Notes under the pieces: model-generated
Database searches by the model: none
Seen by the model: only the letters and a program-made list of their open reading frames with translations
Told to the model about the DNA's origin: nothing
Translations under genes and position numbers: made by a program
Shown: positions 4,610 to 18,958 of the stretch, one piece after another
Numbering within the stretch: the first letter of the stretch is position 1
How the letters are laid out: each line of letters opens with the position of its first letter
Assembly: GCA_005882335.1 (NCBI GenBank)
Contig: VBAP01000005.1
Span: 53,217-75,583 of the forward strand
Reading direction: 5' to 3'
DNA: 22,367 bases
Source of the DNA: Candidatus Segetimicrobium genomatis
GTDB lineage: Bacteria; Sysuimicrobiota; Sysuimicrobiia; Sysuimicrobiales; Kaftiobacteriaceae

Positions 4610-5734
4610 TCACTGCGTGCGCTGGGCGAGCGTAACGACGAAGGTGCGACGGCCGCCGTCGCGGATGACCTCGAGGCGCACGCGATCCCCCGGCCGGCGG
4701 GTAAACAGCTCGCGGATGAATTCGTTCCAATTGGCCACCGGCTTGCCATCCACGGCCACGATGATATCGCCGGCCAGCAGACCCGCCGTGGCGGCGGGGC
4801 CATTCGCGTCCACTTCGCGCACGATGATCCCATGGTCCACCGGCAGACTGTACTGGCTGGCGATGCTGCGATCCACATCGCCGCCCCACACCACGCCGAC
4901 GTAGGGGCGGACCACGCGGCCACCACGGATGAGCTGATCCATAATGGCCCGCGCACTGTCGATGGGGATGGCAAACCCGATTCCCTGGGCGTTGGGGACG
5001 ATCGCGGTATTGATGCCGACGACCGACCCCGCGCTGTCGGCCAGTGCCCCACCGCTGTTGCCGGGGTTAATGGCGGCGTCGGTCTGGATCAGGTTCTCGA
5101 TAATCAATCCGGGCACCTGAATACTTCGGTTGAGCGCACTGACCACACCCACCGTCACCGTGTGACCCAGCCCAAAGGGGTTGCCGATCGCCACCGCCAG
5201 CTGGCCGACCCGCAGCGTACCGGATGTGCCGAGGTCGGCGGCGGGCAGCCGCTCGGCGGTCGCGACTTTCACGACCGCGATGTCGGAGAATCGGTCGGCG
5301 CCGACCAGGCGCGCCGAGTAGGATTTCCCGGAGAGCAATGTGACTTTGATCTGCTGGGCGCCCTCCACCACGTGGTTGTTGGTGAGGATGTAGCCGTCCG
5401 GGCTGACGATCACCCCGGAACCTGCACCCTCCTGCGGGAAGACGCCGAGGACCGTCTGCACTTGCGCCACCGTGTTGATGTTGACCACGGATGGCCGCAC
5501 GCGCTCCACCACGCTGATGATCGCCGACTCTTCGGACACCAGCGGGCGCGGAGCCGGCGACGGGGCCGGCACCTGTGCTTGCGGCGGGGGCAGGGTCGCC
5601 GCCGGGGCGGTCTCGGCCAGTTGCGGCCCGCCGCCGAAGAACCGTGGAAGCACCGCGGTCCCCAGCGCGCTGCCGACCAGGGCGGCCGCGACCAGCAGGA
5701 TCAGTAATCCACCGGGCGTTGACTTCAGACGCAT
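4610..5734 (-). CDS. htrA: HtrA/DegP-family trypsin-like serine protease. It has an N-terminal membrane anchor or signal sequence and one C-terminal PDZ domain. The likely start is ATG at 5732-5734 (MRLKSTPGGLLILLVAAALVG...).
   Basis: Catalytic triad context: NNHVVEGA (His), DIAVVKV (Asp), GNSGGAL (Ser). A strong CAGGAGGG Shine-Dalgarno sequence sits 7 nt upstream of the 5734 ATG on the minus strand. The track start at 5848 adds 38 unlikely residues. Confidence 0.8.
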   Translation of the reverse strand: MRLKSTPGGLLILLVAAALVGSALGTAVLPRFFGGGPQLAETAPAATLPPPQAQVPAPSPAPRPLVSEESAIISVVERVRPSVVNINTVAQVQTVLGVFPQEGAGSGVIVSPDGYILTNNHVVEGAQQIKVTLLSGKSYSARLVGADRFSDIAVVKVATAERLPAADLGTSGTLRVGQLAVAIGNPFGLGHTVTVGVVSALNRSIQVPGLIIENLIQTDAAINPGNSGGALADSAGSVVGINTAIVPNAQGIGFAIPIDSARAIMDQLIRGGRVVRPYVGVVWGGDVDRSIASQYSLPVDHGIIVREVDANGPAATAGLLAGDIIVAVDGKPVANWNEFIRELFTRRPGDRVRLEVIRDGGRRTFVVTLAQRTQ

Positions 5735-5956: not shown

Positions 5957-6832
5957 GTGCTGAATTGGCTGCGCCGCCCCAAATACGGATCCTTGGAGCG
6001 CCGGGAGATGCCCGCGGGCATCTGGGCGAAGTGCCCGCGGTGCCGGAACCTCATCTACCGCAAGGAGCTGGAGCGGAACCTGAAGGTGTGCCCGAAATGC
6101 GCCTACCATCACCGGCTGACCGCCGTGGAACGTCTCGAGATCACCCTGGACGAAAATAGCTTCCGAGAATACGACCCCGGTCTCACGTCCACCGATCCCC
6201 TGGGATTTGAGAACTACCCTGCGAAACTGTCCGAAGCCCGGGCCAAGACCGACCAGGCTGAAGCGGTGATCACCGGTGAGGGCACCATCGATGGGTGGCA
6301 GACGATCATCGGAGCCCTCGACTTCAACTTCATGGGCGGCTCGATGGGCTCGGCGGTCGGGGAGAAGGTGGCACGAGCCGCCGAACGATCGTACGAGCAG
6401 CGCCTCCCGCTGGTGATTTTCTCCGCATCGGGGGGCGCGCGGATGCAGGAGGGCGTCCTCTCCCTGATGCAACTGGCAAAAACGAGCGCGGCCATCGGGC
6501 GGATCCACGATGCCGGGCTCCCCTATCTCTCCGTGATGTGCGATCCCACCACCGGAGGCGTCACGGCGAGCTTTGCATTCCTCGGCGATGTGATCCTGGC
6601 CGAGCCCGGCGCCCTGATTGGGTTCGCCGGTCGCCGCGTGATCGAGCAAACCATCCGCCGTAAGCTGCCCGATGATTTCCAGACCGCGGAGTTCTGCCTG
6701 CAGAAGGGCTTGATCGACATGGTGGTGCCGCGCACCGAGATGCGCAGCGCCTTGGCCCGGCTGCTGGCGTTTGTCGGCGCCCCGCGGGTCTTGCCTGCGC
6801 CGATCGAGCCGGCACCCGCCGCGCAGCCATGA
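5957..6832 (+). CDS. accD: Acetyl-CoA carboxylase carboxyltransferase subunit beta (GTG start).
   Basis: N-terminal C4 zinc ribbon (CPRCRNLIY...CPKCAYH) followed by the carboxyltransferase domain (VIFSASGGARMQEG). Confidence 0.9.
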   Translation: MLNWLRRPKYGSLERREMPAGIWAKCPRCRNLIYRKELERNLKVCPKCAYHHRLTAVERLEITLDENSFREYDPGLTSTDPLGFENYPAKLSEARAKTDQAEAVITGEGTIDGWQTIIGALDFNFMGGSMGSAVGEKVARAAERSYEQRLPLVIFSASGGARMQEGVLSLMQLAKTSAAIGRIHDAGLPYLSVMCDPTTGGVTASFAFLGDVILAEPGALIGFAGRRVIEQTIRRKLPDDFQTAEFCLQKGLIDMVVPRTEMRSALARLLAFVGAPRVLPAPIEPAPAAQP

Positions 6833-7854
6833 CGGAGCGGACCTCCTCCCCCGCCGCGGACTTAGACCGCCAGCTGGCCGACTTGGAGCAAGAGATCGAG
6901 CGTCTGCGGAAGCGAGCCCGGGAGCAGTCCGTCTCTGTCGATGCGGAGCTCGGGCCGCTGCTGGAACGCGCCGACCACCTGCGCGTGCAGATTTATACGA
7001 ATCCGTCCCCCTGGCATATCGTCCAGCTGGCCCGGCAGAGCCAGCGGCCGCGCCTGCTGGATTTCGTGGGCTCCCTCTGCTCAGATGTGATGGAGTTACA
7101 CGGCGACCGGCTGTACCGGGACGATCCTGCCCTGCTGGCGGCTCTGGCGCGGTTTGACGGCCGGCCGGTGGTGGTGATCGGCCATAATAAAGGGAAGGAC
7201 ACCAAGGAAAACATCGCCCGGAACTTCGGGATGCCCTACCCCGAGGGGTACCGCAAGGCGCTACGGGCGATGCGGCTGGCCGAAAAGTTCCGCTATCCGG
7301 TAATCTCCTTCGTCGACACCCCCGGTGCCTATCCCGGAGATGAAGCCGAAGAGCGGGGCCAGGCCGAAGCCATCGCCCGCAACATCCAGGAGATGAGCCG
7401 TTTGCGTGTGCCGCTGGTCGTCGTGATCACCGGCGAAGGGGGCAGCGGCGGCGCGTTGGCCATCGCGGTAGGCGACGTGGTGCTGATGCTGCAGTACGCC
7501 GTCTACACTGTGATCTCGCCGGAAGGCTGCGCCGCCATCCTGTGGCACGATGCATCGCGGGCCCGTGACGCGGCGGAGGCGCTCAAACTGACGGCGCAGG
7601 ATCTACAGACTTTAGGCGTGGTCGATGAGGTACTGCCCGAGCCATTCGGAGGCGCTCACCGCGATCCCGACGCAACATTTGCCGCGGTGCGCGAGGCGCT
7701 CGGGCGGCACCTGCAGGCATTGCGTGAGGTGCCCATCGAAGTCCTCCTTGACCGGCGCTACAAGAAGTACCGGCGCATGGGCCGCATTCTTGAAGAATCA
7801 ACGCAATCTGCGCAATCTTCTCAATCTACGCGATCGCCGGCACAGGACGGGTGA
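6829..7854 (+). CDS. accA: Acetyl-CoA carboxylase carboxyltransferase subunit alpha. It has a low-complexity Q/S-rich C-terminal tail.
   Basis: AccA motifs (the FGMPYPEGYRKALR region, ITGEGGSGGALAI). Its start overlaps the accD stop by 4 nt (ATGA). Confidence 0.9.
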   Translation: MTERTSSPAADLDRQLADLEQEIERLRKRAREQSVSVDAELGPLLERADHLRVQIYTNPSPWHIVQLARQSQRPRLLDFVGSLCSDVMELHGDRLYRDDPALLAALARFDGRPVVVIGHNKGKDTKENIARNFGMPYPEGYRKALRAMRLAEKFRYPVISFVDTPGAYPGDEAEERGQAEAIARNIQEMSRLRVPLVVVITGEGGSGGALAIAVGDVVLMLQYAVYTVISPEGCAAILWHDASRARDAAEALKLTAQDLQTLGVVDEVLPEPFGGAHRDPDATFAAVREALGRHLQALREVPIEVLLDRRYKKYRRMGRILEESTQSAQSSQSTRSPAQDG

Positions 7855-7895
7855 AGGTCGCGCAGACCTGGATTGGGTAGATTCGGGAGGCCGTA

Positions 7896-8372
7896 GTGGC
7901 TGAGCAGAAGCTCGACCTTGACGAGATCCGCGCGGTGATCCGGATTGCCAGCGAGTCGCCCGACGTCGCCGAATTGGAAGTCGAGTCGCCCACGCTGAAG
8001 ATTTCCGTGAAGAAAGTCCCTGGCGGGGTACGCGCGGTCATTTCGCAGCCCGCCGGGAACCCGGTCGCGGTCCACTCTCCGCCGGCCCATCCGGCCCCGG
8101 CCGCACCCGCCGTGACCGGTGACCATCTGGTCCCCGTCACCGCCCCGATGGTCGGTACGTTCTTTCGCGCGGCCAAGCCCGACGCGCCGCCGTTTGTCAG
8201 CGAGGGCGACATGGTCGAGACCGGCCAGACGGTGTGCATCATCGAGGCGATGAAATTGTTCAACGAGATTCAAAGCGAGGTCCGCGGCCGCATCGTCCGC
8301 ATACTGGTCGAAAATGCCTCCCCGGTCGAATACGGGCAATCTTTGATGCTCGTCGATACGACGGCCCCCTAA
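7896..8372 (+). CDS. accB: Biotin carboxyl carrier protein (GTG start).
   Basis: C-terminal biotinyl domain with the EAMKLFNEI biotinylation motif and a Pro/Ala-rich linker. A GGGAGG Shine-Dalgarno sequence lies upstream. Confidence 0.9.
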   Translation: MAEQKLDLDEIRAVIRIASESPDVAELEVESPTLKISVKKVPGGVRAVISQPAGNPVAVHSPPAHPAPAAPAVTGDHLVPVTAPMVGTFFRAAKPDAPPFVSEGDMVETGQTVCIIEAMKLFNEIQSEVRGRIVRILVENASPVEYGQSLMLVDTTAP

Positions 8373-8382
8373 ACAACGAAAA

Positions 8383-8500
8383 GGCGTCTACCAGGTCTAC
8401 AAGGTCTGCCAGGTCTACCAGGTCTACTGACGTACTCCTCGGCGCAGTCCAAGGAGGGAGACTTGGTAGACCTAGAAGACGTGGTAGACCTAGTAGACGC
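8383..8500. repeat. Large imperfect palindrome between accB and accC. The left arm (8383-8427) is five tandem 9-mers, GGCGTCTAC CAGGTCTAC AAGGTCTGC CAGGTCTAC CAGGTCTAC. The right arm (8462-8500) is its near reverse complement. The 34-nt loop between them (8428-8461) contains an AAGGAGGG Shine-Dalgarno-like sequence.
   Basis: Direct reading. The arms match at roughly 32 of 39 positions, with perfect 8-10-bp blocks. Confidence 0.7.
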
Positions 8501-8523
8501 AGTTCGTTGAAAGCAAATCGACG

Positions 8524-9894
<1,371 letters not shown>

Positions 9895-11745: not shown

Positions 11746-11765
11746 CTTCCAAGGAAGAGGGACAA

Positions 11766-11811
11766 GGGAAGAAGGAAGAGGGGTCAGGGCAGTTCCCTCT
11801 TCCTTCTTCCC
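11766..11811 (+). terminator. Intrinsic-terminator-like hairpin after the response regulator gene: an 18-bp stem (GGGAAGAAGGAAGAGGGG / CCCTCTTCCTTCTTCCC) with an 11-nt loop and no U-tract.
   Basis: Direct reading. Perfect complementarity. Confidence 0.6.
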
Positions 11812-11887
11812 TCTTCCCTAGAAAGATAGGAATCCCCCGCCGCCACCAGGAAGACTAAGTATTGGGCGTTTGTGAGGAGGTGTGGGC

Positions 11888-12763: not shown

Positions 12764-12765
12764 CA

Positions 12766-12799
12766 CGTTGAAACGTTGGAACGCTTCAACGTTTCAACG
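12766..12799. terminator. Bidirectional terminator hairpin between the convergent SPFH gene and ABC ATPase gene: a perfect 13-bp stem (CGTTGAAACGTTG-8 nt-CAACGTTTCAACG).
   Basis: Direct reading. Confidence 0.6.
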
Positions 12800-18012: not shown

Positions 18013-18958
18013 ATGAGAATCCGCAACCTTAAACATTTCTATCCGGCGCTGAGTCTGCTGTTATTCTTAGTCGTGTTCACAACGGCGTGCGACATAGTTT
18101 CGTCGCCTGGGGCTTTCGACTCTCCGTTGTACGTGGCCAACTCCGGCGGCGACAGCATCACCATCTACGCCCCCTTCTCTAATGGCCCCGCCGCTCCTAT
18201 CCGCACTATCAGCGGGCTCACGAGTCCGTCCGGTGTGGCCGTGAACGCCGCGGGGGAAACCTTTGTCGCCAACTCCAGCACTAACAGCATCACAGTGTAC
18301 AGCCTTGGCGCCAACGGCAACGCCGCGCCCATCCGCACAATCAGCGGGCTTCTCACCCAGCTCGACAACCCCCAGGGGATCGCTCTGGATGCCGCCGGCA
18401 ACCTGTATGTCGCCAACGTCGGAACCACCACGCCCCCCACTCCCACCCCCAGTAGCATCACTGTCTACGGCCCTACCGCTACGAACAACGCCGCCCCTAT
18501 CAACAAGATCAGCGGAGCCAGTACCGGGCTCGACCACCCCCAGGGAGTACAGCATCACTGTCTACGGTCCAACCGCGACAGGCAACGCTCCCCCCATCCG
18601 AACCATCAGCGGGGCCAGTACCGGGCTCGCCAACCCTATTGGCGTGGGCCTGGATACCACCGTCAACCTCTATGTCGCTAATGCCGGCGGTACCACCAGC
18701 AGCATCACTGTCTACGCCCCTGGGATCAACGGCGACATGCCCCCTACCCGCACAATCAGTGGAACACTAACCGGGCTCGCCAGCCCACAGGGCGTGGTCC
18801 TCGATCCCACCGGGAGGCTCTACGTCGCTAACAACGGCACCCCACCCAGCATCACCGTGTACACCCCAGGCGCCATGAACAATGCTATCCCCATCCGCAC
18901 CATTACCGGGAGCGCCACTGGGCTCAGTCAGCCACTTTTCATTGCCCTCCGCCCTTAG
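18013..18958 (+). pseudogene. Beta-propeller-repeat lipoprotein (YVTN/NHL-like '...LYVAN.G..SITVY...PIRTISG' blades) with a lipoprotein-type signal peptide (MRIRNLKHFYPALSLLLFLVVFTTAC). The reading frame shifts by +1 at ~18544-18547, in a C5/G3 homopolymer context. The repeat blade at the junction is also about half-length.
   Basis: N-terminal 177 codons are in the frame of track ORF 17335..18681. C-terminal ~137 codons are in the frame of ORF 18263..18958. Both read as the same ~46-aa repeat family. 18013..18958 is 946 nt, which is 3n+1. Confidence 0.6.

Follow-up and report, generated by a model that had tools for sequence, protein, structure and literature searches.

Bacterial MITEs (miniature inverted-repeat transposable elements) such as Correia and Nezha and the eukaryotic Foldback elements are small, non-coding and bounded by inverted ends, and the arms of Foldback elements are made of short tandem repeats. 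A REP (repetitive extragenic palindromic) unit is an imperfect palindrome of 20–40 bp, one end of which bears an unpaired tag, GTAG or CGTC (PMC3733652; REP, BIME and REPIN are also treated in PMC3116915). REPs are found mostly between unidirectional and convergent open reading frames (ORFs), near the 3′ end of the upstream one (PMC3733652), and REP325 in the yjdMN operon of E. coli acts as a partial terminator and as an mRNA stabiliser (bioRxiv 10.64898/2026.03.23.713779). The STRR (short tandemly repeated repetitive) sequences of cyanobacteria consist of tandem short units, usually of 7 bp, that are intergenic and have hairpin-forming potential, one example lying between hupS and hupL, and roles in transcript stability and translational coupling have been suggested for them (PMC2670836). 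TAACTGA direct heptamer repeats are abundant near start codons in Beggiatoaceae, Cyanobacteria and Bacteroidetes and have been proposed as post-transcriptional binding sites (PMC4679880). Here we describe a hairpin-forming element between accB and accC in a 22,367-nt stretch of the Candidatus Segetimicrobium genomatis contig VBAP01000005.1 (positions 53,217–75,583); the whole of this stretch is referred to as the window. The element, at positions 8380–8504 of the window, is with a probability of about 0.6 a resident copy of a lineage-specific intergenic family of periodic palindromes that is REP/STRR-like, is co-transcribed with its operon and likely affects mRNA decay or read-through.

The spacer between accB and accC is 151 nt long, and 125 nt of it form an imperfect hairpin element that begins 7 nt past the accB stop and ends 19 nt ahead of the accC ATG (Table 1). 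The units of its 5′ arm start at 8386, 8395, 8404, 8413 and 8422 and read GTCTAC-CAG, GTCTAC-AAG, GTCTGC-CAG, GTCTAC-CAG and GTCTAC-TGA, respectively. A repeat search returned inverted arms at 8384–8425 and 8459–8500, each of 42 nt, 86% complementary and with 33 nt between them, while Tandem Repeats Finder (TRF) returned 9-mer arrays of 4.7 and 3.7 copies in the two arms. The loop measures roughly 26–33 nt, the lower figure applying if the innermost GGAGAC unit is assigned to the arm. The motif AGGTCTAC was encountered 7 times in the window against an expectation of 0.11. Folded as RNA, the element reached −77.6 kcal/mol, compared to −44.1 ± 4.0 kcal/mol for shuffled sequences (z = −8.5), and none of 200 shuffles folded as well; folded as DNA it reached −38.6 kcal/mol (z = −6.9). 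The window element is accordingly able to fold as a very stable hairpin on either strand. The original prediction, made from the letters of the window, had described a long imperfect palindrome of tandem nonamers at this junction, and every part of that description was found to be correct. As the accC start lies only 19 nt past the element there is no space for a promoter, and the element must be co-transcribed within accDABC.

Copies of the element were sought in other genomes. A first scan of species-representative genomes, with a pattern of three GTCTRC-NAG units, proved too permissive, as most of its 112 matches were tandem repeats within coding sequences of Streptomyces and further unrelated genomes. 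The only matches resembling the element were one locus described below (L054) and four loci of VBAL01, the metagenome-assembled genome (MAG) 'Bacillati bacterium ANGP1 NP_4'. One of the latter, L032, is the orthologue of the window, with roughly 96% nucleotide identity over some 8 kb and the element likewise between accB and accC, while the other VBAL01 copies were found between other genes (L023:6815-6946; L081:2470-2554 and 5089-5177; L085:253-384 and 2091-2183), amounting to at least 6 elements within 31 kb. Since all VBAL01 copies open with AACTGC-GTCTAC, metagenome contigs were scanned with ACTGCGTCTACNNNGTCTNCNNNGTCTNC. This resulted in at least 120 loci, chiefly from JGI soil samples, in which a script counted 113 elements at no fewer than 41 flank-distinct sites, all built on one common plan: a terminus AACTGC or AAAGGC, three to nine GTCTNC NNN units, a variable loop, three to nine NNN GNAGAC units and a terminus GCAGTT or GCCTTT. 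Family copies span 85–150 bp each with loops of 7–63 nt that are not conserved, and conservation ends abruptly 6 nt outside the first hexamer. Type A termini (AACTGC) were found at 39 ends and type B termini (AAAGGC) at 18 ends among the 41 sites; many copies are asymmetric with one end of each type (AACTGC...GCCTTT) and many others read AACTGC...GCAGTT, whereas the window copy runs from B to A on the plus strand. An ACGAA-type flank such as that of the window copy was seen again at some other copies. In 0.46 Mb of non-redundant DNA 45 GTCTNC copies were counted, 9 of them beyond the seed match of their own locus, which corresponds to about 20 per Mb. Searching the whole window against Rfam at gathering thresholds returned no family, and viral contigs scanned with the family pattern gave 0 matches. 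No such family was described in the literature searched, and the repeat family appears to be undescribed. As its third option the original prediction had named a miniature inverted-repeat element, or REP-like repeat, that landed in the operon, and it is this option that the copies in VBAL01 and in the metagenome contigs support; the dozens of intergenic copies that the prediction had named in advance as the mark of a selfish repeat were indeed found in related metagenome contigs.

A GTCTNC-type two-arm element was also observed at L054:2571-2662, in an Armatimonadetes MAG from separately sampled groundwater, and the family may thus extend beyond the soil lineage.

The genomic niche of the copies was determined with a simple gene caller based on the GC content of third codon positions, and the counts that follow are therefore heuristic. 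None of the 41 sites placed an element inside a gene. The flanking genes were co-directional at 29, convergent at 8 and divergent at 1 of the 38 sites that could be classified. The median gap at co-directional sites was 4 nt on the side of the upstream stop and 18 nt on that of the first possible downstream start, so that the distances of the window copy (7 nt and 19 nt) are typical of the family. A promoter would not fit into such gaps, and transcription of the elements must therefore take place within operons. At L023:5198-6862 on the minus strand, mechanical ORF calling ran the downstream gene, which on inspection of its sequence resembles an NAD(P)H-hydrate repair enzyme, through an arm of the element and gave it the spurious N-terminus MLVDLVDLGDMVDFVDAV... 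Annotations of these MAGs probably contain similar artefacts of ORF extension.

The history of the accB–accC copy was followed by searching for AccC homologues and by fetching four further contigs (L233–L236) for comparison of the spacer. The element was present and identical to the window copy in L117 (97–98% nucleotide identity to the window), differed by one loop base in L032 (96%) and was present in L153 (84–88%) as well as in L233, where AccC is 90% identical and the spacer is 166 nt long. In L234 (AccC 88% identical) the spacer is 60 nt, GC-rich and without the element, and in L235 (84%) and L236 (77%) it is reduced to 10 nt and 3 nt. The short element-free spacers of these three contigs identify the element as an insertion into an ancestrally contiguous accB–accC junction. 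Four-fold degenerate sites of accC were only 0.48–0.67 identical among the window, L153 and L233, while 40 out of 40 core positions of eight aligned hexamers were invariant in the same three sequences. The chance that 40 positions stay unchanged under neutrality is roughly 0.48^40, which means that selection, or else conversion from other copies, actively maintains the core. The remainder of the element has changed considerably. The number of units differs among the three orthologues, the loops of L153 and L233 are unrelated in sequence to the window loop, and the spacer triplets have switched together on both arms, from NAG/CTN in the window to TTR/YAA in L153, and in 5 pairs both members are altered. 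As reconstructed from these sequences, the copy entered a contiguous junction and was then kept across a clade whose synonymous sites are nearly saturated. Elsewhere turnover was evident, in that a full copy in L210 was matched at the same site in L115 and L225 by a 44-nt deletion remnant and a copy in L189 by an empty site in L129.

In order to see what is conserved within the units, both arms were written in the same sense and paired units were compared. Hexamer positions 1–4 and 6 agreed in 93–100% of comparisons, both within and between copies. Agreement at positions 1–2 of the spacer triplet was 57–72% within a copy and 36% between copies, while at hexamer position 5 and spacer position 3 it was 39% and 32% in paired units, no better than after a register shift of one or two units or between copies. 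A copy is hence a pair of homogeneous inverse arrays of one unit subtype, with NAG, TTR or CCR spacers, and carries about 2 mismatches per 9 positions. The invariant 5-of-6 core, the mismatches at fixed positions and the family swaps described further below go beyond what hairpin formation alone would ask for and point to a specific protein partner. Such a sequence-specific, trans-acting partner of the hexamer array would be a mobilising enzyme or a binding protein.

The following course of events would be in line with the above. On the accDABC mRNA the element would adopt a highly stable hairpin structure, its stem interrupted by periodic mismatches; by analogy to described elements this hairpin would probably act as an intra-operon REP, that is, as a barrier to 3′-exonucleases and/or a partial block to read-through. 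Translation of accC would probably be uncoupled from that of accB, with initiation on the unstructured, A/U-rich 19 nt that follow the element, and the net outcome would be a shifted accB:accC ratio. The resident hairpin may thereby shift this ratio as a side effect. The periodic mismatches may in turn protect the stem from RNase III at the RNA level or from palindrome-directed cleavage at the DNA level.

Several points weigh against the element being a co-transcribed, REP/STRR-like repeat that acts on its mRNA. To begin with, the functional steps at the RNA level are all ones that we infer. The pairing of the arms is not position-specific, as paired units matched no better than units shifted by one register, and the complementarity consequently reflects two homogeneous inverse arrays rather than compensatory evolution of a helix. 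Classical covariation support is for the same reason not claimed, although 5 pairs had changed on both sides among the orthologues. No RNA-strand signal was obtained from counts of G·U versus A·C pairs in the mRNA sense (71 vs 55), nor was there any asymmetry in the mean fold energy of the two strands (−57.9 vs −58.6 kcal/mol), and the orientation of the termini relative to transcription was at most suggestive (12 B-to-A against 4 A-to-B, p ~0.08). A hairpin 7 nt past the stop could also lower accB expression instead of stabilising the message; Liang, Rudd and Deutscher reportedly found in 2015 that stop-proximal REPs can reduce upstream expression. With regard to mobility, a tblastn search of 0.87 Mb for a RAYT gene, with an E. 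coli RAYT sequence as query, gave no match below E = 1, and genes between closely spaced copies look like dehydrogenases or oxidoreductases rather than transposases, as judged by sequence inspection only. No target-site duplication was seen, either as a direct repeat conserved outside position −6 or in the comparison of L189 with the empty site of L129.

Other explanations of the element were weighed against the same data. One was a regulator dedicated to accBC, be it an attenuator, an RNA thermometer or a leader peptide that sets the accB:accC ratio, or an operator array for a fatty-acid regulator; the attenuator, thermometer and operator readings had been offered in the original prediction. 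The position of the element between accB and accC and its retention at this junction in three diverged lineages speak for such a device, as do the features that had prompted the proposal and that were recovered here: the loop holds the Shine-Dalgarno-like motif AAGGAGGG, a TTG behind it opens the 16-codon frame (M)VDLEDVVDLVDAVR*, and accC is without a strong, GGAGG-type Shine-Dalgarno sequence of its own. The proposal is nevertheless very improbable, as the same type of element stands at all the unrelated sites described above and relatives with contiguous accB and accC lack it. The mini-ORF is interrupted by two in-frame TAA codons in L153, and in L233, where the loop reads CCCCTCCC and is devoid of a Shine-Dalgarno sequence, the frame is open with neither a defined start nor a defined stop and runs past the accC ATG out of frame, for which reason a leader-peptide device was rejected. 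The purine run of the window is in part a by-product of the innermost GGAGAC unit, which it overlaps; variants of the GGAGAC and GAAGAC kind are common across the family. Neither a U-tract nor any other terminator-like site was found within 7800–9000, which disposes of an intrinsic terminator and, together with the non-conserved mini-ORF, of transcriptional attenuation. The suggested fold check, on whether the stem sequesters the accC start, placed that start outside the structure. A thermometer fails on the same ground, since the region of the accC AUG is not part of the hairpin, and a stem of −77 kcal/mol is far too stable to melt at physiological temperatures. As for fatty-acid operators, the same arrays follow the stops of dozens of unrelated genes, examples of which read as dehydrogenases by inspection, and only 1 of 38 sites was divergent. 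The element is not a specific fatty-acid sensor.

A neutral or selfish passenger, that is, a repeat, spread by mobility or by recombination, that is tolerated without effect on acc and whose core is kept by conversion or by selection at the level of the element, is conceivable but on the whole rather unlikely. It would account for the many copies between unrelated genes, for their gain, loss and truncation between relatives, for the missing RNA-strand signal and for the wholesale switch from NAG to TTR spacers at the accB–accC junction, which looks like conversion or replacement given that TTR is the commonest spacer elsewhere. A hairpin of −77 kcal/mol between a nearby stop and a nearby start is on the other hand unlikely to be silent for ribosomes and RNases, and the junction copy has persisted with an intact core through near-saturating synonymous divergence while deletions occurred at other sites. 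Alternatively, the GTCTNC hexamers spaced every 9 bp might bind a nucleoid or topological protein on double-stranded or cruciform DNA, the hairpin being secondary. BIMEs bind IHF and gyrase, and the data contain much that a binding array on DNA would produce: the core hexamer is invariant while bases that only serve pairing vary, units in register agree no more closely than units out of register, no difference is seen between the strands, and similar 9-mers (GTAGACCTT and GCAGACCTY) occur in promoter- or origin-like settings of unrelated bacteria. We nonetheless regard a DNA-level array as improbable, because the preference for positions after stops and the avoidance of divergent promoters fit elements that are selected against in promoters or act in transcripts, because the different units of the sister families would demand many binding specificities, and because no candidate protein was identified.

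Table 1. Positions of the accDABC genes, of the parts of the accB–accC spacer and of further periodic palindromes in the window.
Feature	Position	Strand	Basis and remarks
accD	5957-6832	+	Pfam
accA	6829-7854	+	Pfam
Periodic palindrome of AATCTNCGC nonamers, probably decayed	7796-7890	+	TRF; spans the accA stop and the accA–accB spacer; fold weak, z −1.45
accB (biotin carboxyl carrier protein)	7896-8372	+	Pfam Biotin_lipoyl, E 4e-20; TAA stop at 8370-8372
Stop-proximal flank ACAACGA, 7 nt	8373-8379	+	CAACGAA (8374-8380) pairs with TTCGTTG (8503-8509) and lengthens the stem (minimum free energy structure)
Left terminus, type B (AAAGGC)	8380-8385	+	Sharp edge of conservation 6 nt outside the first hexamer
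5′ arm, five 9-nt units (GTCTNC + 3-nt spacer)	8386-8430	+	Sequence, inverted-repeat search, TRF
Non-conserved loop	8431-8456	+	Small CUCCU/AGGAG inner stem; start of the Shine-Dalgarno-like AAGGAGGG (8451-8458)
3′ arm, inverse units	8457-8498	+	Hexamers GGAGAC, GTAGAC, GAAGAC, GTAGAC, GTAGAC, separated by TTG, CTA, GTG, CTA
16-codon mini-ORF (TTG...TGA)	8463-8510	+	Judged not to be a gene; frame not conserved
Right terminus, type A (GCAGTT, reverse complement of AACTGC)	8499-8504	+	Also in L153, L032 and L117
A/U-rich unstructured spacer before the accC ATG	8505-8523	+	Sequence, fold; without GGAGG
accC (biotin carboxylase)	8524-9894	+	Pfam Biotin_carb_N/CPSase_L_D2/Biotin_carb_C
Sister palindrome, GGAAGAG-type heptamers and inverse	11752-11819	+	TRF; directly after a stop; RNA fold −49.3 kcal/mol, z −4.2
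Sister palindrome, ACGTTGAA-type octamers	12765-12799		Between convergent genes; fold −23.4 kcal/mol, z −5.4

The gene order accD-accA-accB-accC is syntenic in L233–L236, and in the window a histidine kinase gene (Pfam) follows next after accC. An NCBI protein labelled 'Bacillati bacterium ANGP1' matches the AccC of the window at 100% identity, and Armatimonadota MAGs supply the nearest AccC homologues.

Periodic palindromes of other unit types accompany the GTCTNC family in the window and on the same contigs (Table 1). L153 lacks the heptamer hairpin of the window in its orthologous spacer. The octamer palindrome has a longer orthologue in L233 (13556-13649), while at its site in L153 the ACGTTGAA 8-mers that the window and L233 share are replaced by GATCCTGG-type units. 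The final ~12 codons of accA (341 aa in the window, 329 aa in L233) consist of tandem AATCTNCGC nonamers, and a degenerate inverse arm (GCGCAGA.., GGGTAGATT) follows in the accA–accB spacer; this unit family has an intact member at L182:562-648. The stretch is probably a decayed palindrome of another unit family that has lengthened the accA frame. Further unit families on the same contigs comprise CTACAC-AAN 9-mers, AGTTGGAA, CGTTGAAA and CGCGGAAA 8-mers, and CAGTCAG, GTGATTA and GGGACTN 7-mers. In total, periodic hairpins with units other than GTCTNC were counted at 35 distinct sites in the sample, or about 76 per Mb of non-redundant DNA. One and the same spacer was occupied by different families in two contigs, with GTCTNC 9-mers at L129:5082-5190 and CCAGTCA 7-mers at L189:7070-7164, just downstream of a canonical terminator with GC stem and T-tract, which suggests site-specific replacement or targeting. 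Among 70 ends of the non-GTCTNC families, 11 showed AACTR, the background being 1.7% (p = 2e-8), and this enrichment is a hint that a terminus or a target is common to them. The terminus common to some families, the swaps of families at one site and the invariant GTCT-C core would all fit a lineage that holds a system of periodic palindromes, comprising dozens of families of tandem 7–9-nt units and implying novel sequence-specific machinery that generates, spreads or uses such arrays. We put this forward tentatively, as a possibility that is less probable than not.

Arrays of related units were also observed in other arrangements. In two MAGs, one of Hyphomonas (L048:4373-4589) and one of Planctomycetaceae (L110:1504-1599), GGTCTAC arrays stand 70–100 bp behind GTAGACCTT arrays. 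These face outward, opposite to the arrangement in the hairpin family, and those of L110 adjoin a gene start, so that they look more like operators or iterons than like members of the family. Nested inverted arrays of GCAGACCTY nonamers were seen at L024:5330-5655, where they take up roughly 300 bp directly ahead of a P-loop ORF (motif GNKPGVGKTTLA); L079, L025 and L053 contain homologous stretches. Among these contigs, which are binned to quite different taxa, the region is 78–90% identical, and it may serve a mobile replicon as its origin or iteron region. In the window itself, TRF reported a 97-bp unit repeated 1.9 times at 18454–18636 (80% matches, score 245).

For the acc operon, these results remove a tempting but wrong reading of the spacer as a lipid-specific riboregulator; as an acc-specific feature the element is ordinary. 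For the lineage as a whole, the elements put very stable RNA structure at many operon junctions and likely shape differential expression within operons. They will in addition confound the prediction of terminators, small RNAs and ORFs in these MAGs. Should novel machinery be involved, for example a mobilising enzyme other than RAYT or a nucleic-acid-binding protein that occupies multiple sites, it would represent a new kind of partnership between repeat and host, and the lineage would offer a tractable model for the long-unexplained STRRs of cyanobacteria.

Compared to the described systems, the family behaves much like REP, BIME and REPIN sequences. It comprises many dispersed extragenic copies in a co-directional or convergent niche close to the upstream stop, its inverse halves fold into a larger hairpin, several families occur per genome, copies persist at orthologous sites, and roles in mRNA decay or read-through are plausible. 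Even the letters are reminiscent of REPs, with GTAG recorded in every unit of the 3′ arm and the outermost unit reading GCGTCTAC / GTAGACGC. By structural definition, however, it is neither a REP nor a REPIN, since its units are non-palindromic 9-mers (GTCTNC+NNN) and only the whole element of 85–150 bp is palindromic; the arms are moreover tandem arrays of variable unit number, and the AACTGC and AAAGGC termini differ. In its construction it resembles the cyanobacterial STRRs, which likewise are intergenic, consist of tandem units of 7–9 nt in several types per genome and, as inverse arrays, give rise to intra-operon hairpins. It differs from these in belonging to another phylum (an uncultured, Armatimonadota-like soil lineage), in units that are not those of STRR1–3, in the invariant 5-of-6 core of its 9-mers, the regular two-arm build and the periodic mismatches, and in the defined 6-nt termini that are common to the copies and to some sister families. 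The TAACTGA repeats share AACTG with the terminus of the element, possibly by coincidence, but consist of a single heptamer in direct orientation only, with neither inverse arm nor hairpin, unlike the window element. Similarities to MITEs include the terminal inverted repeats of many copies (AACTGC...GCAGTT) and the polymorphic presence of copies between relatives, and inverted arms made of short tandem repeats are shared with Foldback elements; unlike those of MITEs, the ends are often non-identical (AACTGC / AAAGGC), and an autonomous partner with matching ends was not found in the genome fragments. The family thus joins the genomic behaviour of REPs to a tandem-unit construction like that of STRRs and to defined ends like those of MITEs.

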